A DNA stretch of 20,000 nucleotides from an uncultured virus (IMG/VR IMGVR_UViG_3300022555_000016) (taxonomy: Duplodnaviria; Heunggongvirae; Uroviricota; Caudoviricetes). Positions 5,499 to 20,000 of this stretch are shown in pieces (within the stretch, counting starts at the first letter, position 1; the number at the start of each line of letters is the position of its first letter). The notes below the pieces were generated by a model. The model searched no databases. It was given only the letters and a program-made list of their open reading frames with translations, and was not told the origin of the DNA. The stretch lies in the IMG/VR virus record IMGVR_UViG_3300022555_000016; one strand, written 5' to 3'. The position numbers and the translations under genes are program-made.

Positions 5499-7232
5499 TC
5501 AACCGACGTAGTGATTGCCTCTAATTAACCGTGAGTCCTTCTGAATCTGAATCTTGAAAGGTGTTGTTAGTACCTTCTTGACCCAGTCTTGGTCAACCGT
5601 AGGCAATCCCATACGAGTCTTGAACTTTCTAAGGACGTTTACTGAGGATTGAACGTCAGAGTGAACATGAATCCCTTTAGCGGTGATATACAAGCCTCGT
5701 CGGACCCGTGTACCACTGTAATGAGGACTGGGAGCACCCTTAACATAGCATGGAGGGAGATAGTCACCGTCCATAGCAGACCCTTTACTAGTGTGTGATT
5801 CATTCTGTAAGTGGACTGTAATACCTACTGCTACGCACTTGTAGGTTAACATTTCCACGAACCGATTGAAGGGGAGCCTAGTAAAGTTCTTCATACCCTT
5901 AGCAAACTGTTTCCAGTCTAGATTCCTACCGATAACTAGGATTACGACACCCTTCTCCACGAGCAGCTTCACTAGCGTGCTGGAAACGTTGTGGAGGTAG
6001 TGGTCCAGTCTATTTCTAAGCTTATTGTAAGCGGCTTGAATCCTCTTTGAAGAGTTCTGTGGGACTTTAGAAGTTAGAATCTGACTCAACTCCTGATCGT
6101 ACTCAGGAGGCTCGGGGTACAATGAATCGTGAGTAGCAAAAGCTTGCTGAACCATCAAACCTAGCATAAGGTAGTTAAACGGGTTGGACTCAGGGTCTTT
6201 CAACTCCCTAAGACGTTTCCTCTTCAACTCTAGCTCTTCTTTAGCTTTAGTACGTTCGTCTATTAACTGACGTTCCCTAGCCGGTTTAGACCAGTAGAGG
6301 TCCCGTTTAAGCTCTTCTATCTGGTAGTAGGACCAAAGTAATAGAGACTTCAGAATCCAACCGTTAAAGGCTATAGGCTTTGGATTACCTTCGATTACCC
6401 CAGCGGCTGTAACGTTTAACCCTAGGTCAAAGCTTGCTATGGCTTGTAGTTCTTCCTGCTTAGCAGTCCAGTTACCTGTAATCTCTTCGTTGTAGACTAC
6501 TTCTACGTTGTAACCACCTACTATTGGTATGTAGCGTACTTCCGTGATTCCAACGTCTCTTAGGACAGGTTTACCCCTGGAATCCTTCTTTATAGCTTGT
6601 TTACCGTTAGCGTCGGTAACAACTTGAGGTTGCATGTGGAGGGTGAAGGGTATTTCCTGTTTAAACTCAGGATTCTTAGGGCAAAGGGTGATGATTCCCT
6701 TGGGAGCAATAGACTCTGATAACCTAGCGCCTTTGACCTGTTTCCTATCAGAATCAATGATCTGACCACCGGACATGGTCTGGTAGGTAAATTTAACAGG
6801 CTTACGACTGTCAGTCCTACGGATGTACTTATCACCCTTGAATCCAGGCGGTTGAGGGCAAGCCTTGTACTTCTTAGGAAACTGTTTCTGGAGTTCCTTG
6901 CTTTTAGTCCACTCCCAGAAGTCAAACCAAGCTGCTTCGAAGGACTTCCAGTCGTCATGGAGCATCTTAACGGTAGCTTGAGCTACTTTAGCAGGTAACC
7001 GTTGGTACTCTAGAGTCGGTTTTAACAGCTTAACTAGCTCTGGTAGACTAGGAATCCTACGCCGTTGGAAGCCTGGTTTCTTATAGTTGTCTTGGTTGTA
7101 ATTCCAGATTTCTAGTAGAAGGTGGAGACCTACATGATAGAGTTTGGAGGACAAAAAGCAAGTACGATCAATACTCCTATCCCAAGGGTGTTTTGGACCT
7201 ACAAACTGTTTTTGAGTCCTAGTTTCTAACAT
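5499..7232 (-). CDS. tnpB: TnpB-like RNA-guided endonuclease (IS200/IS605 OrfB), rearranged-RuvC type, enlarged
   Basis: RuvC-I IASFDLGLN; LDHYLHNVS bridge region; LVIGRNLDWKQ (canonical Glu replaced by Gly); LTYKC...GITVHLQNESHTSK (relocated Glu); RVRRGLY; RuvC-III HSDVQSSVNVLRK; no CxxC zinc finger. Confidence 0.88.
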   Translation of the reverse strand: MLETRTQKQFVGPKHPWDRSIDRTCFLSSKLYHVGLHLLLEIWNYNQDNYKKPGFQRRRIPSLPELVKLLKPTLEYQRLPAKVAQATVKMLHDDWKSFEAAWFDFWEWTKSKELQKQFPKKYKACPQPPGFKGDKYIRRTDSRKPVKFTYQTMSGGQIIDSDRKQVKGARLSESIAPKGIITLCPKNPEFKQEIPFTLHMQPQVVTDANGKQAIKKDSRGKPVLRDVGITEVRYIPIVGGYNVEVVYNEEITGNWTAKQEELQAIASFDLGLNVTAAGVIEGNPKPIAFNGWILKSLLLWSYYQIEELKRDLYWSKPARERQLIDERTKAKEELELKRKRLRELKDPESNPFNYLMLGLMVQQAFATHDSLYPEPPEYDQELSQILTSKVPQNSSKRIQAAYNKLRNRLDHYLHNVSSTLVKLLVEKGVVILVIGRNLDWKQFAKGMKNFTRLPFNRFVEMLTYKCVAVGITVHLQNESHTSKGSAMDGDYLPPCYVKGAPSPHYSGTRVRRGLYITAKGIHVHSDVQSSVNVLRKFKTRMGLPTVDQDWVKKVLTTPFKIQIQKDSRLIRGNHYVG

Positions 7233-8481: not shown

Positions 8482-8742
8482 TTACCTTTTGGGCCAAAAA
8501 TCTTTCCACACAACTTTAAAAGTTGAAACCTCAACAATCTGTGCAAAGGCACAATCTGGAAAATGTAGCTTCTTGCGATAGTCCTCAACAAACGTTAAAG
8601 CTGACTGAAAATCAGCAAACTTGCCACGAAAAGAGCCCCAACCCCACAAACTAGTGTCGGGGCTATCTTCATAACCACCAACAAACACTAAATATTGGTA
8701 TAGCATGTTACAAACTCCACACCTGAGATCAAGAGTAGACAC
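8482..8742 (-). CDS. Hypothetical protein (true start may be the internal MLYQYL)
   Basis: YLVFVGGYEDSP...GWGSFRGKF...AQIVEV, a typical small phage protein. Confidence 0.65.
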   Translation of the reverse strand: MSTLDLRCGVCNMLYQYLVFVGGYEDSPDTSLWGWGSFRGKFADFQSALTFVEDYRKKLHFPDCAFAQIVEVSTFKVVWKDFWPKR

Positions 8743-8782
8743 TGCTGATCTCTTGATCTCAGGTTTGTTAAACTAGGTTATG

Positions 8783-9205
8783 TCAAGTCAGGTCTTGGAT
8801 TTTCCAGCCTGTGGAAACCAAGGTGCGAATTAGAGATTCTTTATTGCTCACCAACTGAGCTTCAAGCAACTGAGGGCAGCTATCAAAGTCATCCTCGTCG
8901 TCGTCATATAGAGAAATGAGGTCATCCTGAGCGGCGATCATTTCAGAGTTTATAGAGGACGGACCTCTAAACAAAGTTTTGACTAGCAAGGTGTTTGTTG
9001 CCAAGTCAAACGTATCCGGGTAGATGGAGAACTTAAGATCGTTAATAATAACGTCGATTCCTAGTTGTTCTCCTGACATGAGCCAGCCAGGCAAGTCCAC
9101 TTCCTTAGACAGAAGTTCAAAGGAAGGGTTCCTATTTTTCTTGATGTCCTTCCTATTGGCAAAGAAGACCAAAGGTAGAGACAAGAGGCAGTGTACGTTA
9201 GACAT
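8783..9205 (-). CDS. Hypothetical protein with acidic patch
   Basis: AAGGA SD, own promoter upstream, YDDDEDDFDS stretch. Confidence 0.7.
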   Translation of the reverse strand: MSNVHCLLSLPLVFFANRKDIKKNRNPSFELLSKEVDLPGWLMSGEQLGIDVIINDLKFSIYPDTFDLATNTLLVKTLFRGPSSINSEMIAAQDDLISLYDDDEDDFDSCPQLLEAQLVSNKESLIRTLVSTGWKIQDLT

Positions 9206-9243
9206 AGGTTATATTTCCTTGCAGTGTTTTGTTGAAGGTCCTG

Positions 9244-9272
9244 ATCATGACAGAACAAAAACCGAATGTCAA
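9244..9272 (-). promoter_or_regulatory. Sigma70-like promoter
   Basis: TTGACA (9272-9267), 17 nt spacer, CATGAT (9249-9244) with extended -10 TG. Confidence 0.7.
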
Positions 9273-9280
9273 GGGGAAAA

Positions 9281-9523
9281 TTAACACTGACTGAGTTGTC
9301 TTTTTTCAAGAGGTAGAGAACGGACAAAACGCTTGATATCTGAGCGCCAGTTCTGGATTCCCAACCGATCTGACGGAGTTCCTGCTAGGGGAAACTTACG
9401 ACCGGCGACAATTAAGTGAGTATGCTTTCCTCCATCTTTTAGATCGTAAGGAATATTGTGCTGAGACAATATCTTCTCAGCTTCACGAACTCTTTCCCGT
9501 TCGTGCTTATTAAGAACAATCAT
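9281..9523 (-). CDS. HicA-like (dsRBD-fold) protein
   Basis: 80 aa, basic; DLKDGGKHTHLIV...FPLAGTPSD...NWRSDIKR matches the G(S/K)H and TPSD pattern of HicA-like phage proteins. Confidence 0.6.
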   Translation of the reverse strand: MIVLNKHERERVREAEKILSQHNIPYDLKDGGKHTHLIVAGRKFPLAGTPSDRLGIQNWRSDIKRFVRSLPLEKRQLSQC

Positions 9524-9571
9524 GATAAAACCTTAGTAAAGCAATTAAAGAAATAACTTATCTTGGTAGAC

Positions 9572-9600
9572 AGTTTACCAGACTTAAAAACGAAAGTCAA
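9572..9600 (-). promoter_or_regulatory. Sigma70-like promoter
   Basis: TTGACT (9600-9595), 17 nt spacer, TAAACT (9577-9572) with extended -10 TG; AT-rich upstream element. Confidence 0.7.
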
Positions 9601-9614
9601 GAGAAATTTTTCAC

Positions 9615-9659
9615 AAAAAATAAACCTAGTAGACTCTATTAACTAGAGTCTACTAGGTT
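9615..9659 (-). terminator. Rho-independent terminator after the BRO gene
   Basis: Perfect 16-bp stem (9623-9638 / 9644-9659), 5-nt loop, followed by TATTTTTT on the minus strand. Confidence 0.85.
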
Positions 9660-9673
9660 GTTAATGAGAAAAG

Positions 9674-10741
9674 TCATGGCTTACTTGGCTTACGCTTCGA
9701 GTTAATGTCAACTACGTTAGGAGAAGCAAACTTCTTAACTTTTGGTTTAGTAGTTAACTTCTTCAACTCAGTCTTAATTGTTGCCAACTCTGTACGGTAT
9801 CCCTGCATCAAAGCATCAACTTCTGTCTTAAAGGTCTCATGCTTCTCGGTCAAAACGTTGATTCTCAGTCGTAGATGAGAGTTGGCAGATTGTAACTTAC
9901 CAAAATCAACAGCTAACTTAAGACAAACATCTAGGTTTGAACGAGTCATAGTCACAGTCTGGTTTAGATCGTTTGCTAAATCAGCCACCTTAGCAGGAAT
10001 TGGAGCAGAGAGTTTCTTGACACGTAGCCCCAACTTTTTAGTTCTAGCGGCTGACTTAGCTACATCGTCCACACAGGTCTCTGTGTCAATTACTGCGTTC
10101 GCTACTTGCTCAGCCACAGAAGTCTTAATCTTTGAAGTTACTTCTGGAGTTAGTTTGTTGAGAAGCTTCATCAGCGTAGGCTCTTGTTCGGCAAGAACCG
10201 TCTTAATTACATCCTGAACATCTCCCATAGTCATGTAGCGAGGGTACGGCTCAACCTCCTTTGAGTTTGAGTAGGGAGGATGCCACATGTCCTGACGAGG
10301 TGGATTGTTAGCGGCGTCAAACTTACCAATTTTACGGATAGAAGGAAGGACGGTTCCTGTAACCCACTTACGAAACTTGTGCGGCGTCGTACCTGCCGTA
10401 GTAGCTAGACGACAACGGAGCGTTAAACTATAGAACCCTGATTCGTTAATCAAAGTAACCAGTTTAGCACCACTTACCAGACCCTCCGTTGAACCGAGGG
10501 TCGAGGCCAACCCATTGATTTTGCTCATTATATCCTGAAATCCAGGCTCACCGTACTTAACTAGTGAATGCTCATCCTCGTCTAGTTGGTTCTTAGCACT
10601 ACTGGGATTCTTGATGCCTAGGAACTTGCACACGTCAACCAACTTAAACCAAGGTTCATCATTCTTAATAAAGACGATTAGTGGGTTACCAGCAAAGTCA
10701 AACGTCTGCTTGTCGTACACGGTAGTAGCCTTACTAGTCAT
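9674..10741 (-). CDS. BRO-N domain protein (antirepressor-like) with C-terminal coiled coil
   Basis: EPWFKLVDVCKFLGIKNP, LINESGFYSLTLRCR and FRKWVTGTVLPSIRKIG are BRO-N signatures. Start at ATG 10741, downstream of the promoter. Confidence 0.9.
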   Translation of the reverse strand: MTSKATTVYDKQTFDFAGNPLIVFIKNDEPWFKLVDVCKFLGIKNPSSAKNQLDEDEHSLVKYGEPGFQDIMSKINGLASTLGSTEGLVSGAKLVTLINESGFYSLTLRCRLATTAGTTPHKFRKWVTGTVLPSIRKIGKFDAANNPPRQDMWHPPYSNSKEVEPYPRYMTMGDVQDVIKTVLAEQEPTLMKLLNKLTPEVTSKIKTSVAEQVANAVIDTETCVDDVAKSAARTKKLGLRVKKLSAPIPAKVADLANDLNQTVTMTRSNLDVCLKLAVDFGKLQSANSHLRLRINVLTEKHETFKTEVDALMQGYRTELATIKTELKKLTTKPKVKKFASPNVVDINSKRKPSKP

Positions 10742-10796
10742 AGTGAACAACCCTTTCTCAAGGGAGGTCAAGCTGATTCCTGACCTACCGACTATG

Positions 10797-10825
10797 ACCC
10801 TACACCCTTCCGAATCCTTTGTCAA
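10797..10825 (-). promoter_or_regulatory. Sigma70-like promoter of the BRO gene
   Basis: TTGACA (10825-10820), 17 nt spacer, TAGGGT (10802-10797); AT-rich upstream. Confidence 0.6.
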
Positions 10826-10906
10826 GAAAAATCTAAAATTTTTGTTAATAAGAAAATTTGTCAAGCAAAATCAAAGGTTTGTCTGTCTATGAGAGTTTGA
10901 TGAATC

Positions 10907-10944
10907 AAAAAACCCAGTAAACTCTAGTTAAAGAGTTTACTGGG
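10907..10944 (-). terminator. Rho-independent terminator after the glycosyltransferase-like gene
   Basis: 13-bp perfect stem (10913-10925 / 10932-10944) followed by TTTTTT on the minus strand. Confidence 0.85.
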
Positions 10945-10984
10945 CTTAAGAGCTACTAAACTACTTAGACAAGCAGACAGCGGT

Positions 10985-12031
10985 CTAGTCCTCTAAACTG
11001 TCTTCATTCCTACTACGGAAGTATTTACGTAGAAGGTCACGTAAGGTTATATTGTTTCCAGATAGTACGGGGAGACCTTGCCAATCGTCTACTAAGTCTA
11101 CATCAGGATCAAACTTTGAATCAACGATTACGCTTCTACGAGAAACATAGCCTCGATGCTTCTTAGAACCATGATGGTTGTGTGCTATAGTACCGGAAAT
11201 ATAGCCTATGTTCTTACGAACGTACTGGCTACATAGCTGTACAAACCTAGACAAGCGGCGACGATAACCTGGAGTAATAGTGTCTGGATCAATGAAGTCT
11301 ACTGAAGAATGATCTAAATTTAACAAACCTGCAAAGGAGAGTGCCATGACATAGTCTGCTGCTCCAGTAACACACCAGTCTAAAATGCCAATCTTGTCGT
11401 AAATCTCTTTACGAATTGCCCAGGCGTAGCCATAATGACTCTTAGGAGCTTTAAAGCTATGACCGTAGTCAGCGTTAGGTACTTCCCGAAAGTCCCCGTC
11501 TACCCACGCCGCACAGAATGACTTATCTACGGTAGAACCATGCTCATTTTGAATAATCTCTCCTTTTGCGGAAAGATCAACTGAATTGGACCAAGGTTGC
11601 ACGACTGCGTAGTGCTGTAAAGCAGCAATCGTTTTACTAGCCCACTGAGCGTCAAGAAATGTCAAGTCAGCATCAATCCAAGCAATGTACTTAGCATCAT
11701 GAGGGACAGCACGACTAATTCCTACTTTAATTAAAGCCTCTTTTAACCAAGTCTCATGGCGTTCATCACCACGCAGTTGGACATGGAAAGGATTAGCAGC
11801 GTCAGTTACTTCCCACGGACGATTACCGAAAGCGTGCTCTACACGAATAACTTGAACGTTAGGTGTAGACTCCAAACGCTCAACACATTGGAGAAATAGA
11901 GGAACACGACTTTTCCAACCAACGGGATTAGACAACACGGCGATACAGTAAAGTGTGTTTTCTGGGTCTAAACCGCTACGTGGGTCTTTAGGATGACTAT
12001 AGTGTAAACCAACATTAAGTTTGTTTGACAT
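10985..12031 (-). CDS. GT-A fold glycosyltransferase-like protein
   Basis: WLKEALIKVGI, YIAWIDADLTF (DxD), VVQPWS, GYAWAIR, GAADYVMA and late HNHHG. Start at ATG 12031 behind AGAAGG. Confidence 0.7.
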   Translation of the reverse strand: MSNKLNVGLHYSHPKDPRSGLDPENTLYCIAVLSNPVGWKSRVPLFLQCVERLESTPNVQVIRVEHAFGNRPWEVTDAANPFHVQLRGDERHETWLKEALIKVGISRAVPHDAKYIAWIDADLTFLDAQWASKTIAALQHYAVVQPWSNSVDLSAKGEIIQNEHGSTVDKSFCAAWVDGDFREVPNADYGHSFKAPKSHYGYAWAIRKEIYDKIGILDWCVTGAADYVMALSFAGLLNLDHSSVDFIDPDTITPGYRRRLSRFVQLCSQYVRKNIGYISGTIAHNHHGSKKHRGYVSRRSVIVDSKFDPDVDLVDDWQGLPVLSGNNITLRDLLRKYFRSRNEDSLED

Positions 12032-12170
12032 TTCTTGAAACCTTCTTAAAATTATTAACCTCAGCCCTACGATCAAAATTAAGAACCAATAGTAGTTTTT
12101 AAAGACGTTGTTACAAAACGACACAATTTTTCTTAGTTTTACCACAATTTTGTAACATTACTACCAGGCG

Positions 12171-12205
12171 TAAAAAGAGTCCAGTAGCACGAAAACTACT
12201 GGACT
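12171..12205 (-). terminator. Terminator hairpin after the second endonuclease VII gene
   Basis: agtccagtag (12178-12187) / ctactggact (12196-12205), followed by CTTTTT on the minus strand. Confidence 0.75.
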
Positions 12206-12245
12206 TCAAGGACACATTGACTGGAAGATAGCTAGTAACACTAAA

Positions 12246-13259
12246 CTAAGTTTGTTCTCTAAGTTTTGCAGCGTTTAAGTAGTCAATGGCACGTCTGATT
12301 AGTTTAGTCTTGTCTCTAAACTCACCTAACGCTACATTGCATGTGCGACAAGCGTAGCCTCTAATTAAACCTGTAGTGTGGCAATGTTCAATTTCAAGGT
12401 AAGGAACGTCATTACCACAGATAGCGCAAGTGCAGTAAGTAGATGATACTTTATCAAGTAACTTTCTTAAGTACCTACCATGAGCTGCGTTGTTTTTACC
12501 TTTAAAACCATTCAAAACCGTATGGATCATTAGCCTAACCCTAATGGAAAACTTAACGTTCTCTATTACAATTACAGCAATTTTAGACCTTGAAAAGTTA
12601 AGCAGCTTACTAATAGTTTTAGTTGACTTGCCAGATTCCCATAAACCTATTACTTTTTTAGCAAAGTCTATTTTAATAGCTCTACGTGTAGCACTTCCCT
12701 TATCAATACTCTCCTTAAGAGGAGATGCTCTTTTTAAGATATTATTAGGAATACTGTTTTTAGTAAGAGCCTTGCTAACAGTATTCACAGAAATATTAAA
12801 TTTTGCTCCAACTTCAGCCTTGGTAACATTAGGTTCAGAAAGATAAGCTTTACAGATTTGTTTTTCCAGCTTACCTGTCAACTTCCTAGAATTTGGCCTA
12901 CCTGCGGCGTTAACTAGTCTAATAACTATACCGTTTTCTTCTAAGACTTTCCTTATGGTATGCTTGCTTACCCCGTAGTCTTTAGCAAGTTTAACCAAGT
13001 TTTGTAATTTAATATAGTCTTTTGCTATGGCGGCTTCCTCCGCCTCAGAAAAAACATGCCTACCATTAACCATAGGACGTGTAAACTCTTTTTTACGATC
13101 TTTCCTAAACTGCCTACGCTTAACTACCCTTACGCCGTGCTTTGCCCGCACTTTGCGTACAATATAACCACTAACATTACAAATCTTACCTGCTTCTTTT
13201 AAGTTAAAGCAAGAATTATAGGCGTTTATTATAAGAAGCTCATCTTCTTTGGACAACAT
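12246..13259 (-). CDS. Endonuclease VII-domain (His-Me finger) protein with four N-terminal HTH-like repeats
   Basis: C-terminal CAICG...IEHCHTTGLIRGYACRTCNVALG...AIDYL; repeats such as LVKLAKDYGVSKHTIRKVL and AEVGAKFNISVNTVSKAL. Confidence 0.88.
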   Translation of the reverse strand: MLSKEDELLIINAYNSCFNLKEAGKICNVSGYIVRKVRAKHGVRVVKRRQFRKDRKKEFTRPMVNGRHVFSEAEEAAIAKDYIKLQNLVKLAKDYGVSKHTIRKVLEENGIVIRLVNAAGRPNSRKLTGKLEKQICKAYLSEPNVTKAEVGAKFNISVNTVSKALTKNSIPNNILKRASPLKESIDKGSATRRAIKIDFAKKVIGLWESGKSTKTISKLLNFSRSKIAVIVIENVKFSIRVRLMIHTVLNGFKGKNNAAHGRYLRKLLDKVSSTYCTCAICGNDVPYLEIEHCHTTGLIRGYACRTCNVALGEFRDKTKLIRRAIDYLNAAKLREQT

Positions 13260-13287
13260 GTGTAAATCCTTTATACTTAAGGTTAAA

Positions 13288-13989
13288 CTAAAGCGGATAC
13301 TTTAAGTAAAGTATCGCCGATTCCATATAGTCAGTATTGTCTTTAAGCAGCCCTAATCCCGAGTTGCAACAGTAACATAAGTAACCTCTAATAGCACCAC
13401 TTACGTGGCAATGATCTATAGTTAAAGATTCTACTTCTCCACAAATGTCACACGCTCTAGGTTTAATGTCTAGCATACGTCTTAAGTACTCCTTACTAGA
13501 TTCATAACTGGTACCTAATAAATTTGTTGTAACGTAAGTTATTAGGCTTTCAATCTTCTTAGAGAAGTGCCTATTTTCACAAATGTAGTCTGCTACGTTA
13601 TATATAGGCTTCCTAATGTTAGCAGAAATAGTGTCAATATTAACACCTTCATCCCACATAGTTAGTATACTATTAAACGTATCTTTATGCTTACGGACTC
13701 TTTCTTTTAAAGCTTCCTCAGAATTAGCGTGTTTTATAGATTCTTCATGTATAGCTTTACGTTTATTACGTTGAAATTCCGTATTAGTAGGTATTCCAAA
13801 GGAATTTAAAATTCTACTAACTGTAGTACAACCAACATTATATTTAATGGCTAAAGAACTAATGTTAGCGGAGGGAGTTTCATACTCACGACATAAGGCT
13901 ACTTTTTGCTCATAAGATAAAAAGGTTTTAGACTTACTTTTAATAATTGAAGTGTCTAAACAAAAATCTATATCATGTTTCTTAAGCAC
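13288..13989 (-). CDS. Endonuclease VII-domain protein with HTH repeats (main part; N-terminus lies in the upstream frame)
   Basis: CDICG...IDHCHVSGAIRGYLCYCCNSGLGLLKDN...AILYL; HTH ISSLAIKYNVGCTTVSRIL. Confidence 0.88.
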   Translation of the reverse strand: MLKKHDIDFCLDTSIIKSKSKTFLSYEQKVALCREYETPSANISSLAIKYNVGCTTVSRILNSFGIPTNTEFQRNKRKAIHEESIKHANSEEALKERVRKHKDTFNSILTMWDEGVNIDTISANIRKPIYNVADYICENRHFSKKIESLITYVTTNLLGTSYESSKEYLRRMLDIKPRACDICGEVESLTIDHCHVSGAIRGYLCYCCNSGLGLLKDNTDYMESAILYLKYPL

Positions 13990-14096
13990 TTTTTAATCTT
14001 ATAAACTGTAGTACTAAACCTAACAGCCGTGCCATTTAAGTTTGAACTTTTGGTATAGAAATCGACAATGGTTAATTCTTGCTCTTGAGTAAACAT
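13968..14096 (-). pseudogene. Frameshifted N-terminal HTH of the endonuclease VII gene
   Basis: GAAGGA SD, then MFTQEQELTIVDFYTKSSNLNGTAVRFSTTVYKIKK..., which aligns with the paralog's MLSKEDELLIINAY...IVRKV. One extra A in the run at 13990-13994 joins it to VLKKHDIDF. Confidence 0.75.
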
Positions 14097-14115
14097 AACT
14101 AAAATCCTTCTAGGT

Positions 14116-14529
14116 TTACAGTTTGCGTTGAAGTTCAATGAACGCTAGAATCTCTTTAACGGAGGAGGAACCTACTGTAGCAATGAAACAATTCTTGGTC
14201 CACATGCAAGGGATTCGACTCTTTAGGTCAGGAAACTTGGACCGTAGAATCCTAGCTGAACCATCTTTGATCTTATCAACTATAGACATAATAGTTACGG
14301 TTGGGGGTATGTCTACTACTACGTGAACATGGTCGTCTGTAATCTCCACTCCCAATAACACGTAACCAAACTCTACTTGTTTGTCTCTAATGAATCCCTT
14401 TAATACTGTAGAAATACCGTCAACCAAGACATGACGACGATACTTGGGGCAGAACACTATGTGGTACTGACAGGAGAAAACCTTGTTGTTTTCCTTACGG
14501 TAGGCTTTCTTGGGAGGCTTTACCAACAT
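14116..14529 (-). CDS. tnpA: IS200/IS605 Y1 (HUH) transposase TnpA homolog, catalytic Tyr replaced by Phe
   Basis: YHIVFCPKYRR, DHVH (HUH), IPP, KDGSARILR and MWTKNCFIATVG. C-terminal helix reads ILAFIELQ where the family has YIxxQ. Confidence 0.9.
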   Translation of the reverse strand: MLVKPPKKAYRKENNKVFSCQYHIVFCPKYRRHVLVDGISTVLKGFIRDKQVEFGYVLLGVEITDDHVHVVVDIPPTVTIMSIVDKIKDGSARILRSKFPDLKSRIPCMWTKNCFIATVGSSSVKEILAFIELQRKL

Positions 14530-14639
14530 TTTAGAATATTCCTTATAAGTAGACTCTTAGTTTAACATAGCTCCTATCTTAAAATTAGATTATTACCAAA
14601 TTTTAAAGGCTGATAGTAAAAGAAAATTTTACTCTCGTA

Positions 14640-14678
14640 AAAAGACAAAAGCCTTAGGAGATTATCTCCTAAGGCTTT
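14640..14678 (-). terminator. Palindromic hairpin/terminator after hfq
   Basis: aaagccttaggaga-tta-tctcctaaggcttt (14648-14678), followed by TGTCTTTTT on the minus strand. Confidence 0.8.
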
Positions 14679-14748
14679 AAGATCACATTGACTGAGTCAT
14701 AGTAGATAAACTGATGATAGTAAGTTACTAGAGAAGTTGAATAACGTC

Positions 14749-14949
14749 TCAGTTACTCGCGCTACACGGTAGTACTGTCGATACAGCTTGGATGAATACT
14801 ATTTGCTCAATACCTCTCCCAAATAGCTTGATAACTTTAGCATCAAATGCGGTGATCTGACCTTGAAGCTTAATTCCACTATTTAGGAAGATTGTGACTT
14901 CGGCTCTACGAGCTACCAAATCAGACAGAAAATCTTCTTGTACAGACAT
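14749..14949 (-). CDS. hfq: Hfq/Sm-like RNA chaperone homolog (66 aa)
   Basis: VQEDFL...VTIFLNSGIKLQGQITAFD...QIVFIQAVSTVLP aligns over the whole Sm1/Sm2 core of Hfq (LQDPFL...VSIYLVNGIKLQGQIESFD...QMVYKHAISTVVP). Start at ATG 14949 behind AAAGGGA. Confidence 0.92.
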   Translation of the reverse strand: MSVQEDFLSDLVARRAEVTIFLNSGIKLQGQITAFDAKVIKLFGRGIEQIVFIQAVSTVLPCSASN

Positions 14950-15174
14950 GTTAATAAGTCCCTTTATTATGAGGCACTTTTTCAAAAGTGACCTTCTTTG
15001 TTGAAAATAGATAAAATTTTAGTCATTATAGCAAACAACCAAACCCACACCCTTAAACTAAAATTAGGATTATTAAAAATATCTATTATAGTTAACTTAT
15101 AATTTAACGGTACGTATAGCTACTTAGTCATTAAAATCAAGGCATTATAGGCAGATAAACATAGTAGAATTTAG

Positions 15175-15217
15175 ACAAAAAGAAACCCTGTTGGACAATT
15201 AAGCCCAACAGGGTTTC
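15175..15217 (-). terminator. Rho-independent terminator after nrdJ
   Basis: 13-bp stem gaaaccctgttgg (15182-15194) / ccaacagggtttc (15205-15217), followed by a T run on the minus strand. Confidence 0.85.
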
Positions 15218-15240
15218 AGGTTTACAGAGTCAAAGTCAAG

Positions 15241-18200
15241 TTAACCACATTTAGAGTAACCGCAGTCTAAACAGGATTGGCACCCTTCTTTACGTATTAA
15301 ACTAGGCTGTTGGCACTTTGGGCAAATTTCACCCAGCACCTTAGGCTTAACACTAGAATCAACCTGTTCAATGTTAACTAAACGGTCCTTACTGGTGTCG
15401 TGATAGTTAATACTTTGTAAGTGCTGATGTATGATTATACCGATGTACGCAGTTAAGGATGGGATATATTTACCCTTAACCCATTGACCGCCTTGAGGAG
15501 AGTGCGTCTGCAAAAGCTCTTCAATTACGAAACTAGCATCTGTTCCGTCATCAGCGGAACGACGGAAGATTCCAGATATCATCCGGGTCAAGGCTACGAT
15601 TAACTCTAGGCTCTCTACGGCTTTAGTATTAACAAAAAGCTCAAAGGGAAGAACCTTACCGTCTTCCGAAATTATATTGTTAATAGTTATGTAGTAAGCG
15701 CGTGAAGAGTCTACACCCCACTTTATCTTATAAGACTTACCTTCCAGAACATCAGGCCGCTCAGGCTTACCGTTCTTGCTCATTTTCTTAGTAACCTTTT
15801 CTTCTTGAGGCAAAGCTTTTAGCTCGTCAGCAGTTACTGCTTCAGAAGTGACACTTAATATACTACCACGATTAGGATTGGGGCGATAGGTAGTAACTCC
15901 CTTACACCCCGTATCGTAAGCGGTCATGTATACAGACTTAAACTCATCAAAAGTTATAGACTCAGGACAGTTAACAGTTTTACTAACAGCAGCGTCAATA
16001 TACGTCTGACAAGCAGCTTGCATAGCTAAATGTTCATCAACAGTAAGTTCTAAGGCTGTAACCATACTATTAGGCAAACTGCTTAAAGAAGCAGTTACTG
16101 GGTCAAGCTTGTTTACTGAACAATATAGCTGCCATCCGCGATCACAAACAGCAAACTCCTTAAATGACTCGTCTAACTGGCGAACTTTCCTATAGTACCT
16201 GAAAGAAAAAGTTGGCTCCAACCCTGAAGATACATTACCGTAGTACAGACTAGTTGTACCATTAGGAGCACAGGTCTGTAGCACGGCATTACGGATACCA
16301 GTCTTCCTTATTAACTTTTGAGTATCCTTAGGTAAGTCTTTAAAGAAATGATTATCACACCACCCTTTACTGTACAAAGGAAAGGCTCCACGCTCTACAG
16401 CTAATTCAGCGGACGCGTGATAAACAGTATCACGCCAAGTTTTTAAAGTGGATTTAGTCCAATCTAAAGATTCCGAACTTCCGTAGCGTAAACCTAACGC
16501 TTGTAAAGCACTAGCTAAACCTAAAAACCCTGCGCCAATCCTACGCTTACTATCAGACTCTTCTTCTTGCATAAGTAGAGGCCAATTAGTTATGTCTAAT
16601 ACGTTATCTAGAAACCTCACTCCTAAAGATGCGACCTTCTTCATACGATCTAAATCGAAACTGGCATTTTTAGTAAAAGGTTCACGAACAAAAGACAGTA
16701 GATTTATAGCACCTAAGTCACACGTTCCGTAGGGAGGCAACGGTTCCTCGCCGCAATTTCCGGTTGTAATTCCTACAGCCAGTGCAACTTTGTGGTGTGG
16801 TTTTACTGTACAGCAGTAGACTTCCTTATCGATACCATCTGGTTCAATGGATACCACTTTACTGTACTTAGGCTTAGGAAGCCTATTGCTTACAGTTTTA
16901 TTTGAAAAGTTTTTAAGCCTACTAAACTCAACTTGCTTAGCCAAGTTAATTGAGTCAATTTGACTAAGACCTAACCGCCAAGACTCTTGACAATAATAAT
17001 TACCGCCTGGCATGTCCTTATAACAAGCTGCTTTCATAAGACCTAACTTAGAATTCACACCTAAAGACTTAAGAAGTGTTTGAATATCAATTAAAAAACC
17101 TTTTTCAACGGAGCTTAATTGATAACCAAACCCATTGGTTTTTGAATCTTTAACTGTACCATCTGCGTCAAAAAGACCTGCTAAAAATTCACACTTAGTA
17201 GCATAGTCCCAAGAGAAGCAATACCTAGGCAAACGACTCTTATACTTGGACGCCCAGTTATCTAAACGACCGTCATTATTCCGAACAGTTAGTCCAGACA
17301 TTTGCCATTTAGTAGGCATACTTGGCGATACCGAAAACCCTAATTCAACCTCTGCGTTAGTGTTAACTGCACCAACTTCAAGTTCCGAAGCAGACTCAAT
17401 TAACCTAGAAGCACAACAATGCTTAGGTTCATATAGGAACAGATTTAGGCGTGACTTGCCTGAGTCTCGCGTAGAAGTATGCCCATCGCCTACCAAGAAA
17501 CCCTTAAGATAAGCTGCTGGTTCCCAACGCGTACCATTATACTCTACAGTAGCCAACTCTAACCTATGACCGACTTTCAAATCTTTAGCTTTAAGCTTAG
17601 TACCGTTATCCAAATAAAACGAATGCTCTGTTGTAACTCTCAACGAAGAACCATCATAGAGAGTTACTTTCAACATAGGTTGATTGTTGCCAGTAACCCT
17701 AAAGTTGTCAACGTCAACCCAGGAAGTACCATCCCATATGGTTACTAACTTTCCTACCAACTTTTTAATAGGCTTAGCCCCGTTATTGGTGATAATTAAA
17801 GTATCCGCTGAAAAACAGGGATTAGTTGCAGAGATGACCTCACCACTATACTTTAAGTTGTTTCTGGAGTTTATCTCATCAATAAAAATTACCCCAGGCT
17901 CTGCCATAGAGTAAGTGCTAGTCATAATAGCATCCCAAAGTTCAACCGCAGGCAAAACTTTGTATACATACCAAGGCTTACCGTTTTTTTCTTTAACAGA
18001 AACTACGGTAGTCAGATCAACAGGAGGAATACCAAAACCTAATTCCCAAACACCGCCGGATTTTACAGAAGTCATCAATTTACTAGTGACTAAAACTGAC
18101 ATATTAAAATTTAGCAAAATTCCTGACTTCTGCTTGGCGGTTATAAATTCAAAAATGTCAGGGTGATCATCTGCCATAACTGCCATCATAGCACCTCTCC

Positions 18201-18678
18201 GACTCGACCCAGAGAGAATAGCTTGGCACATAGAATCAAACATTTTCATAAAAGAAATTGGACCACTAGAAGTGGAGCCTGTAGCTTTAACTATAGCACC
18301 TTTAGGACGTAAAGTAGAAAAATCAAAACCAATACCTCCACCTTGTTGCATAGTTAACGCCGCTTCTTTTAACTTTTCCATGATGTCTGCCATAGAATCA
18401 TCTATAGTACCAGACACAAAGCAGTTTAAAGAAGTAGTCTTGTGATCAGTACCAGCACTAGCATGAATCCTACCAGCAGGATTCCATTCGCGGTTAATCA
18501 TTGCTTCTAGCACGAGAGGCATAAACTCATCACGCCTAGTATCCTTTTCATAAACAGCGGAAACGACCCTTTTAAAAGAGTCTTCAATTGACTGTTCATT
18601 ACCTTCCGCCCACCGATACTTCTCGCGCCAAATATAGTCAACAATTGGATCGTAAGGGACAAAATTTGATACTGTCAT
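15241..18678 (-). CDS. nrdJ: Class II (adenosylcobalamin-dependent) ribonucleotide reductase with intein, C-terminal TSCPD-like domain and Zn ribbon
   Basis: PAGRI, NCFV, QQGGGIGFDFSTLRPKG, RRGAMM, NP|CGEEPL, CDLGAINL, APNGTTS, SSGLEP, KGVTTYR; terminal CPKC...EGCQSCLDCGYSKCG. Confidence 0.96.
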   Translation of the reverse strand: MTVSNFVPYDPIVDYIWREKYRWAEGNEQSIEDSFKRVVSAVYEKDTRRDEFMPLVLEAMINREWNPAGRIHASAGTDHKTTSLNCFVSGTIDDSMADIMEKLKEAALTMQQGGGIGFDFSTLRPKGAIVKATGSTSSGPISFMKMFDSMCQAILSGSSRRGAMMAVMADDHPDIFEFITAKQKSGILLNFNMSVLVTSKLMTSVKSGGVWELGFGIPPVDLTTVVSVKEKNGKPWYVYKVLPAVELWDAIMTSTYSMAEPGVIFIDEINSRNNLKYSGEVISATNPCFSADTLIITNNGAKPIKKLVGKLVTIWDGTSWVDVDNFRVTGNNQPMLKVTLYDGSSLRVTTEHSFYLDNGTKLKAKDLKVGHRLELATVEYNGTRWEPAAYLKGFLVGDGHTSTRDSGKSRLNLFLYEPKHCCASRLIESASELEVGAVNTNAEVELGFSVSPSMPTKWQMSGLTVRNNDGRLDNWASKYKSRLPRYCFSWDYATKCEFLAGLFDADGTVKDSKTNGFGYQLSSVEKGFLIDIQTLLKSLGVNSKLGLMKAACYKDMPGGNYYCQESWRLGLSQIDSINLAKQVEFSRLKNFSNKTVSNRLPKPKYSKVVSIEPDGIDKEVYCCTVKPHHKVALAVGITTGNCGEEPLPPYGTCDLGAINLLSFVREPFTKNASFDLDRMKKVASLGVRFLDNVLDITNWPLLMQEEESDSKRRIGAGFLGLASALQALGLRYGSSESLDWTKSTLKTWRDTVYHASAELAVERGAFPLYSKGWCDNHFFKDLPKDTQKLIRKTGIRNAVLQTCAPNGTTSLYYGNVSSGLEPTFSFRYYRKVRQLDESFKEFAVCDRGWQLYCSVNKLDPVTASLSSLPNSMVTALELTVDEHLAMQAACQTYIDAAVSKTVNCPESITFDEFKSVYMTAYDTGCKGVTTYRPNPNRGSILSVTSEAVTADELKALPQEEKVTKKMSKNGKPERPDVLEGKSYKIKWGVDSSRAYYITINNIISEDGKVLPFELFVNTKAVESLELIVALTRMISGIFRRSADDGTDASFVIEELLQTHSPQGGQWVKGKYIPSLTAYIGIIIHQHLQSINYHDTSKDRLVNIEQVDSSVKPKVLGEICPKCQQPSLIRKEGCQSCLDCGYSKCG
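16756..17817 (-). mobile_element. Intein (354 aa) with LAGLIDADG homing endonuclease in nrdJ
   Basis: Begins CFSADT after ATNP; block B VTTEHSF; LAGLIDADG motifs LKGFLVGDG and FLAGLFDADG; block F VYCCTV; ends ITTGN before +1 Cys (CGEEP). Confidence 0.95.
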
Positions 18679-18730
18679 AACGCCAAGCCCTCTTCTTTAA
18701 ACTGTTGAACCTGAAACTAAAAACACAAAA

Positions 18731-18859
18731 TCAAGGTAGCAAACACGACAAGGCTACCAAAACTACAAACAACCACCCTAGCCACAATGACCAATTACGC
18801 CTAACAAACGTCGGATTAACTGAGCTTAACAGGAAGTAACCTTTGTACGAACAGAACAT
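18731..18859 (-). CDS. Putative small membrane peptide (42 aa, not in the ORF track)
   Basis: AAGGTG SD, then MFCSYKGYFLLSSVNPTFVRRNWSLWLGWLFVVLVALSCLLP* with a C-terminal hydrophobic segment. Confidence 0.4.
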   Translation of the reverse strand: MFCSYKGYFLLSSVNPTFVRRNWSLWLGWLFVVLVALSCLLP

Positions 18860-18873
18860 TGCTCACCTTTTTC

Positions 18874-19098
18874 TTACGGGGCTAGGGTAGAACCGTCAAA
18901 CAGAACATCAACTTTCTCAACAAACTCAGACAACGGACGCGACCACTCACTACCGTTAGCACCAATATAATTAACGGTATAGGGGAAATCAATAGATTCA
19001 GGTACTGATGTGTTAGTTACCTTAAGAATGGTGTAGACCGTTCGTTTTCTAGAATGAACTACAACTGTTCCCGGCTTAACTTGTTCCTTGGTTAGCAC
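18874..19098 (-). CDS. Small phage protein, DUF1653-like
   Basis: GGAG SD with GTG start; VVVHSRKRTVYTI...VNY...WSRPLSEFVEK resembles the DUF1653 HxKGxxY...VVY...WxRPxxxF pattern. Confidence 0.65.
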   Translation of the reverse strand: MLTKEQVKPGTVVVHSRKRTVYTILKVTNTSVPESIDFPYTVNYIGANGSEWSRPLSEFVEKVDVLFDGSTLAP

Positions 19099-19127
19099 TA
19101 TCTATCTCCATCAGCATTATAAATAAT

Positions 19128-19166
19128 CACTGGAAACCTCCACCTTTTAAGGTGAGGAGGAAAGCG
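19128..19166 (-). mobile_element. Right-end hairpin of the IscB-bearing IS200/IS605 element
   Basis: Minus strand TTCCTCCTCACCTTAAAAGGTGGAGGTTTCC directly after the iscB stop, resembling the usual iscB 3' end pattern (TTCCTCCCC..CCTAAAGG..GGGGTTTCC). Confidence 0.75.
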
Positions 19167-19174
19167 ATTCCTTT

Positions 19175-19828
19175 CTATTTTAAGGGTTGAATCAAAGTGG
19201 TGCTTCTAGCTTGTAGTCTAACACACCCCTTCTTAACATTAACACTGTTAGACACTACAGTACCGTCCAGCTTAACTACAGAGAAACTTCCGGTAGACCG
19301 TTTACCTTTAATGAATCCGGTGCCTTTAGGAGTCTGAATCAGGTCAAACGTCCTAAAGCCGAACAGCTTACCTCTAGGGTAAATCTTCTCAGACCCTAGA
19401 CCCCAACGTTGTTGGTAGTCACCGTGAGCTACGTGTTTCTTGTAGTACACTGGAGTGTCGGCTAGCACTGAAGTAATCTTGATACCACAAGCTATAGCTA
19501 TAGCGTCGTTAGCGTGGGTCTTAGGTAGACCTAACTTCTCCCGTTTAAGTTTAGTCTGGTAACCAAAGGTCTCAACAAACTCCCAATCAGATTTCTTTAA
19601 TTGACTAGAAATGATTCCCATTTCCGTTGGATGTTTGGTAGCAGACCTTTTAGTCGGTAGAGTTATTTTACCGTCATGAATCTCTTTGTGGCGGTCCTTA
19701 CAGACTGCTATCAGGTTAGCAGGGTCGTTGGTACCACCTTCAGACCTAGGAATCTTGTGGTGAACATGAAGTACCTTAGAGTGCTTACCTGTCTTTACCT
19801 GACACTTGTAATCGTCCCTAGCTAGAAT
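19175..19828 (-). pseudogene. iscB: C-terminal half of IscB (HNH, RuvC-III, C-terminal domain), interrupted at the start of the HNH
   Basis: The frame extends upstream of the track's ATG: ILARDDYKCQ...LHVHHKIPRSEGGTNDPANLIAVCKDRHKEIH (HNH), ETFGYQTK, KTHANDAIAIA (RuvC-III), LFGFRTFDL...GFIKGKRSTGSF. Confidence 0.88.
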
Positions 19829-19965
19829 GTGAACAACTCCGGGCTTAAAGCCCTGGAGCTTCCCCCTCGCGGGTGGGAAGTTACTCTTTCGACGAGGACT
19901 GCTGACCCTATCGGGTAGTCTTACACCCTCTCCAGAGTCGTGAATTACCAGTATACCTCCGGTAT
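19829..19965 (-). ncRNA. Right end/omegaRNA scaffold of a TnpB-type IS200/IS605 element inserted in iscB
   Basis: Minus strand ACCGGAGG..CTGGTAATTCACGACTCTGGAGAGGGTGTAAGAC...GCAGTCCTCG..GAAAG, stems ACCC-GATA-GGGT and CCC-GCGA-GGG, terminal hairpin CTCCAGGGC-TTTAA-GCCCGGAG (19858-19837), end motif TTCAC (19833-19829). This follows the known TnpB right-end RNA layout. Confidence 0.8.
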
Positions 19966-20000
19966 TTCTCAGAGACTCAGATTCTTTTTGACATAGAACC

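Follow-up and report, generated by a model that had tools for sequence, protein, structure and literature searches.

A TnpB element without tnpA, probably inserted into an iscB gene, at the end of a freshwater phage-like contig

Features of the locus

The window, a stretch of 20,000 nucleotides from an uncultured virus (IMG/VR record IMGVR_UViG_3300022555_000016), ends at base 20000 with the last base of its 129,496-bp contig; the fetched locus L009 belongs to this same contig, window positions 9884-20000 being equal to L009 1-10117 at 100% identity. At this end, all on the minus strand, the last codons of a tnpB gene and the right end of its element are followed directly by the C-terminal part of an iscB gene, with the following features:

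19969 to 19998, minus strand: last nine tnpB codons (FYVKKNLSL) and the TGA stop, the remainder of the gene being beyond the contig end
19829 to 19968, minus strand: right end following the tnpB stop, presumed omega RNA/reRNA scaffold; positions 19829-19962 are common to all the other copies of the element
19837 to 19858, minus strand: subterminal imperfect palindrome CTCC-A-GGGC/GCCC-GGAG with one bulged A, with GAAG ahead of it at 19862..19859
19829 to 19833, minus strand: terminal TTCAC; the element stops after C19829, 8 nt 3' of the hairpin foot, and has the same end in all five aligned copies
19809 to 19828, minus strand: right flank ATTCTAGCTAGGGACGATTA, the predicted guide part by analogy with ISDra2, made up of the first iscB codons (I L A R D D Y)
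19175 to 19828, minus strand: C-terminal part of IscB (HNH, RuvC-III with THANDA, C-terminal domain), 217 codons without an internal stop, plus a stop codon at 19177..19175

The minus strand reads ...CTCCAGGGCTTTAAGCCCGGAGTTGTTCAC and then ATTCTAGCTAGGGACGATTACAAGTGTCAG... over the window end; at the junction itself, ...CCCGGAGTTGTTCAC, whose TTCAC lies at 19833..19829, is followed by ATTCTAGCTAGGGACGATTA.

The C-terminal part of iscB

A tblastn search with the protein P0013 as query showed that homology to iscB begins at 19828, and the frame that starts there contains a Pfam HNH domain (E 2.2e-8). When the iscB frame was used to search the protein collection, 173 of 578 candidates matched at E <= 1e-5. 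The best IscB matches were proteins of 395-422 aa carrying RRXRR and HNH, with 55-59% identity to the window part, and some of them bear the source name 'RNA-guided endonuclease IscB'. In an alignment with 11 IscBs, the ILARD of the window fell on the V-L-x-R-D column; the HNH region, the RuvC-III motif K-T-H-x-N-D-A and the C-terminal domain all aligned downstream of it, and about 185 N-terminal columns had no counterpart in the window. The earlier note on this DNA had proposed that iscB sequence resumes at the base next to the element, and both the tblastn start and the position of ILARD confirm this. In addition, residues 241-353 of solved IscB structures (e.g. 7UTN and 7XHT) matched the window part, and positions invariant in the 11 homologues were kept, for example H80, H81, N95, H104, H108, H162 and D165 (numbering of the 274-aa frame). 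Taken together, Pfam, the alignment and the structure matches give an HNH inserted in a split RuvC, followed by RuvC-III and the C-terminal domain, which is the arrangement by which an IscB is recognised. Judged by its sequence, the stretch from 19828 is the C-terminal 55% of an IscB with an abrupt start. It shares the HNH, RuvC-III and C-terminal domain with IscB, an OMEGA nuclease (OgeuIscB; 7UTN/7XHT), but comprises the C-terminal 217 residues only, whereas the PLMP/RRXRR, RuvC-I/II and bridge-helix parts and the upstream omega RNA would be outside the window.

The residues preceding V/I-L-x-R-D in the homologues bear on what stood before the break. According to the earlier note, IscB usually has A-Y at this place; this held for six of the 11 homologues, the others having Q-Y (two) or A-F (three). 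The tyrosine itself is thus present in eight of the 11, and comparison with these proteins makes a Tyr TAC codon likely at the iscB break. Some alignments ran on into the right end of the element through an IscB-like translation, 'GKLQGF'. We regard this as chance, since the same DNA occurs in four contexts other than iscB.

We also observed that the 68 nt just 3' of the iscB stop (window 19115-19182) form a multi-copy repeat, 95.6% identical to the intergenic positions 13487-13554 of L008, with a summed depth about 7-10 times that of its neighbours in two sequencing runs (X1 and X2, described below). This repeat may be a terminator or a repeat of another kind.

Right end of the TnpB element and its copies

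Exact-pattern scans with a 24-mer of the block upstream of the junction found one IMG/VR contig and five places in one metagenome, one of the five being L009, the window's own contig, and five copies could be aligned (those of the window, L003/L006, L005, L007 and L008). The other copies carry a conserved block of about 134-146 nt at 96-99% identity to the window (96-97% for the right end of L005, L008, L007 and L003/L006). We found that all five were common up to ...GTTGTTCAC and unlike from the very next base, the right flanks being ATTCTAGC in the window, TTAGCCAA in L005, AAGATGCT in L008, AAAATAAG in L007 and AAACAAGA in L003. Because all five copies end alike and their flanks are unrelated, the boundary between 19829 and 19828 is a true end of a mobile element. 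The proposal that a TnpB-type right end stops exactly at TTCAC, made from the window alone, is therefore borne out by the divergence of all five copies at the next base, as well as by the tnpB of L005 and the tnpB C-terminus of the window. The element is multi-copy, with at least five different right flanks in one metagenome.

Each of the copies in L005, L007 and L008 is followed, after 22-53 nt, by an ORF in the same orientation, and that in L003 overlaps the end of a convergent ORF. Only one of the five lies inside coding sequence, and the flanks of the other four are unrelated, so that there is no sign of a preference for iscB. The right-end 24-mer was absent from the species genomes, the 40-mer across the junction was absent from IMG/VR, and no DNA similarity of the right end to phage records was found.

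One copy differs in make-up. In L008 (9945-10190, minus strand), the right-end block of about 134 nt has no tnpB and comes after a short ORF and a sigma-70-like promoter close to the consensus (TTGACA, 17 nt, TAGACT; 10 of 12 positions matching). This block may be a stand-alone guide RNA gene or a mere remnant.

The tnpB gene

A complete element, with left end, tnpB and right end, was present in L005, where a 436-aa ORF (8629-9939) lies directly upstream of the conserved block, which overlaps its stop codon. The ORF contains HTH_OrfB_IS605, OrfB_IS605 and Cas12f1-like_TNB domains (PF12323, PF01385 and PF07282). Upstream of the tnpB stop, the window DNA diverges from L005, the proteins ending in FYVKKNLSL and FHLKRNSSLL, respectively. 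The 90% cluster of the L005 TnpB has nine members, five of 435 aa ending in RFYVKKNLSL, encoded on public contigs of up to 124 kb, and four of 436 aa ending in KFHLKRNSSLL; the C-terminus in the window is that of the 435-aa members, indicating that the window carries the 3' end of the 435-aa TnpB variant. This variant aligns nearly full length (residues 6-398, E ~4e-56) with the structures of ISDra2 TnpB from Deinococcus radiodurans (8H1J/8BF8), and in the alignment to the top structure match the positions of GIDVG, LE and NRD, which we take to be the catalytic ones, are kept. When close relatives of the TnpB were sought for the purpose of defining the left end, IMG/VR gave only proteins with 32-53% identity, and in the protein collection the next match outside the element's own TnpB cluster was at most 41% identical.

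No Y1 (HUH) TnpA was found between the ends of the L005 element. Members of the IS200/IS605 family without tnpA are common. Elsewhere in the window (14116-14529, minus strand), a gene for a 137-aa IS200-like TnpA with a Y1_Tnp domain (E 1.2e-29) adjoins an Hfq gene (14749-14985). No ends or hairpins like those of the TnpB element were found around this tnpA, whose product may be the transposase acting in trans.

Left end and putative target motif

The element has subterminal imperfect palindromes at both ends and lacks terminal inverted repeats, the left end having been seen in L005 and L006 only. In L005 the left-end hairpin, CTCC-A-GCC/GGC-GGAG at about 8504-8524, has the same foot and bulged A as the right end in the window, and AAAG stands directly 5' of it, with a candidate target 16 nt upstream. 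The second left end, found by blastn, is a remnant in L006. The two are alike from TACTGAAC, the preceding base being C in L005 and T in L006, so that CTAC and TTAC, respectively, precede the shared left end; these are two observations, one of them from a remnant, and the shared TAC could be the element's own. No target duplication was found at L005. In IMG/VR, a 22-mer of the left end matched only the contig of L006. The L006 remnant (9001-9115, plus strand) lacks tnpB and carries two palindromic inserts of 24 nt, of which one interrupts the hairpin and the other follows it closely.

These features can be set beside those of IS608, an IS200/IS605 element of Helicobacter pylori. In the part of the IS608 account drawn on here (PMC3201880), a guide AAAG at the foot of the left hairpin recognises TTAC, which is situated 19 nt upstream of the left palindrome; TCAA lies 10 nt 3' of the right palindrome, and the target is identical to the left cleavage site. 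Both elements have subterminal imperfect palindromes and no inverted terminal repeats, and L005 shows no target duplication. As far as that account goes, they also share a (T/C)TAC upstream of an AAAG that adjoins the left hairpin on its 5' side, and a TCAx-type right cleavage site a few bases 3' of the right hairpin. By the same account, the present element differs in its spacings (left, 16 nt against 19 nt in IS608; right, 8 nt against 10 nt) and in ending in TCAC instead of TCAA; moreover, it has no tnpA inside (L005), and it is known from sequence alone. By analogy with IS608 and from the two observed left ends, a TTAC-like target, (T/C)TAC, is plausible. The earlier note had guessed at TTAC as target and TAM. 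The sequences before the two left ends and the AAAG at the hairpin foot agree with that guess; the window's own left junction would lie beyond the contig end.

Origin of the junction

The data are probably best explained by a nested insertion, in which an IS200/IS605-family element without tnpA entered the iscB gene of a freshwater phage-like genome. According to this explanation, an element of about 1.6 kb, consisting of left end, tnpB and right end, would have landed between two codons, immediately ahead of the I-L-A-R-D with which the HNH region begins. A Y1 transposase supplied in trans would have placed it 3' of (T/C)TAC, probably the TAC of the Tyr codon, and, as the left end starts with TGA, the N-terminal half of IscB would be stopped right after that tyrosine. 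Since iscB is a dispensable selfish gene, such an insertion would be tolerated. Copies being several per genome, recombination between them may have separated the two halves of iscB.

The 5' half of iscB was sought in several ways. A tblastn search of all the fetched loci with three full IscBs found only the C-terminal part in the window and no N-terminal half. A scan of IMG/VR for close relatives gave seven pattern matches, none of which was confirmed, and in the species genomes such a scan retrieved 13 relatives, none of them close, with 33-65% identity over short segments only. A search for short proteins with an IscB N-terminus gave 170 of 181 candidates at E <= 1e-10, and of the 120 listed none ended right after the A/Q-Y/F position; one protein, P0153, ends one residue past the Tyr/Phe position and comes from a partial Vibrio record. 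That no 5' half was found is accounted for by the end of the contig at window base 20000.

A second, rather unlikely explanation is that the C-terminal part of IscB is an orphan relic, its 5' half having been lost or moved after the insertion, or by an adjacent deletion or by recombination between TnpB copies, so that no recognisable gene would surround the element any more; the same guide would then be present in the RNA, but the genome would hold no cognate donor joint. The occurrence of at least five copies with different flanks, with a right-end-only remnant in L008 and a left-end-only remnant in L006, testifies to breakage and rearrangement, and a 5' half was found neither in the fetched loci nor among the listed short IscB N-terminal proteins. 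However, the contig end accounts for the missing half, the 217 codons are free of stops with the invariant positions of the 11 homologues kept, which speaks for a recent event, and the break falls exactly at the element end and at a codon boundary after the usual tyrosine, as a simple insertion predicts.

A self-splicing insertion of the IStron kind, combining a group I intron with an IS605 element, would restore the iscB mRNA and leave IscB functional. IStrons that have tnpB alone are known (PMC13565253, in the part drawn on here), a make-up shared with the present element, which would likewise lie inside a protein-coding gene, and the iscB frame remains open through the right end to the window end, over 57 codons. 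Such an open run is, however, expected by chance about once in 15 cases (our own estimate, (61/64)^57). According to the same part of that source, the 5' exon before a group A IStron terminates in T and the IStron itself in TCAG. In the present case C closes both the left flank and the element, so that the junction nucleotides do not fit. Moreover, the 5' non-coding part, about 140 nt from the left end to the start of tnpB in L005, is too short for a ribozyme, and no Rfam family, including group I introns, was detected in L005 8400-10150 (E <= 1) or at the window end (E <= 10). On the strength of the junction bases, the short 5' part and the lack of a detected intron family, we rejected the identification as an IStron, which we consider very improbable.

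To assess the junction in independent assemblies, Logan contigs of four sequencing runs (X1, X2, X7 and X8) were compared with window positions 18800-20000. Two of these runs, X1 and X2, come from different studies; in both, independently assembled 615-nt contigs span 19289-19903 across the junction with no differing letters, so that an assembly chimera at the repeat, for which it might be said that three contigs of the metagenome break inside this same repeat, is hardly credible and was rejected. The contigs of X7 and X8 did not bridge the junction from the iscB side, and loose ends at 19828 proved to be the flanks of the L008 and L007 copies. The right-end block had a summed word depth of 123-246 in X1, compared with 27 beside it, or about 5-9 times that of the neighbouring sequence, which fits several copies per genome or several strains. 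Among 19 of 21 loose ends, no uninterrupted iscB allele was seen to run on from 19828, and such contigs drop rare variants. Other contigs in the runs matched only pieces of iscB, 19289-19376 with eight differing letters and 19731-19771 with four, with unlike sequence on both sides; this suggests that there are more iscB-like genes in the same communities.

Predicted guide RNA and its possible targets

In the part of the ISDra2 account drawn on here (PMC8612924), the reRNA is about 150 nt long, corresponds to the 3' end of tnpB and the right end, and has at its own 3' terminus about 16 nt taken from the flank; with the target motif serving as TAM, it directs cutting of the donor joint. The conserved block of the present element, which extends over about 134-146 nt between the 3' end of tnpB and the end of the element, corresponds in size to the ISDra2 scaffold as described there, whereas the target motif suggested here is (T/C)TAC and not TTGAT, and both RNA and cleavage are predicted only. 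By this analogy, an RNA from the window copy would end in ATTCTAGCTAGGGACG(ATTA). Of the eight sequencing runs listed as containing this DNA, none is recorded as RNA. A consensus fold of the right end from three copies contained 42 pairs, with a compensatory change in one, and no Rfam family matched the right end or window end. The flank at 19809..19828 occurs once in the window (allowing up to three mismatches) and in no other fetched locus.

If the nested insertion took place as proposed, an RNA of about 150 nt would begin at the 3' end of tnpB, cross the right end and take in about 16-20 nt of iscB, and would guide TnpB to cut copies in which TAC directly precedes ATTCTAGCTAGGGACG..., that is, the donor joint left after excision of the element or, in a co-infecting relative, an iscB allele without the insertion. 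With an occupied copy as the repair template, the element would then be restored or spread. Because TnpB guides always derive from the flank of their own right end, a guide matching iscB is a passive result of the insertion site. For this reason, and in view of the unrelated flanks of the other four copies, the earlier description of the guide as one that targets iscB, in an OMEGA-versus-OMEGA conflict, went too far. A bolder version is that an active RNA-guided homing drive operates in large freshwater phages, in which TnpB with the iscB guide cuts and converts the intact iscB of co-infecting relatives, while promoter-equipped copies like that of L008 supply guides in trans. We hold this to be quite improbable; were it true, one OMEGA nuclease would spread by destroying a rival one.

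The mechanism itself would not be new, as nested insertion sequences, flank-derived guides and restorative homing are already established. The locus offers a natural, well-delimited case of a compact TnpB element (435/436 aa) that has multiplied in phage-like genomes, and the five natural right flanks, which would serve as guides, together with the likely (T/C)TAC motif, should be useful for testing this orthologue. In addition, the case would illustrate that the gene of one RNA-guided selfish nuclease can be the landing site for another.

Genome context

The window looks phage-like in its gene content, with BRO/Ant-type and other PHROG families. The same element also occurs in a sister contig of 74 kb, an IMG/VR viral record with an estimated completeness of 33%. 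We found the window to be crowded with selfish elements. For example, a second, unrelated and unusually long TnpB-like ORF of 577 aa (5499-7232, minus strand; PHROG 'transposase') has OrfB_IS605 and Cas12f1-like TNB domains in its C-terminal third, and the gene for the large subunit of ribonucleotide reductase (15241-18678, minus strand) is interrupted by an intein with a LAGLIDADG domain. Two adjoining ORFs of 337 and 233 aa (12246-13989, minus strand), with helix-turn-helix regions and a C-terminal Endonuclease VII domain, look like free-standing genes of the homing-endonuclease type.
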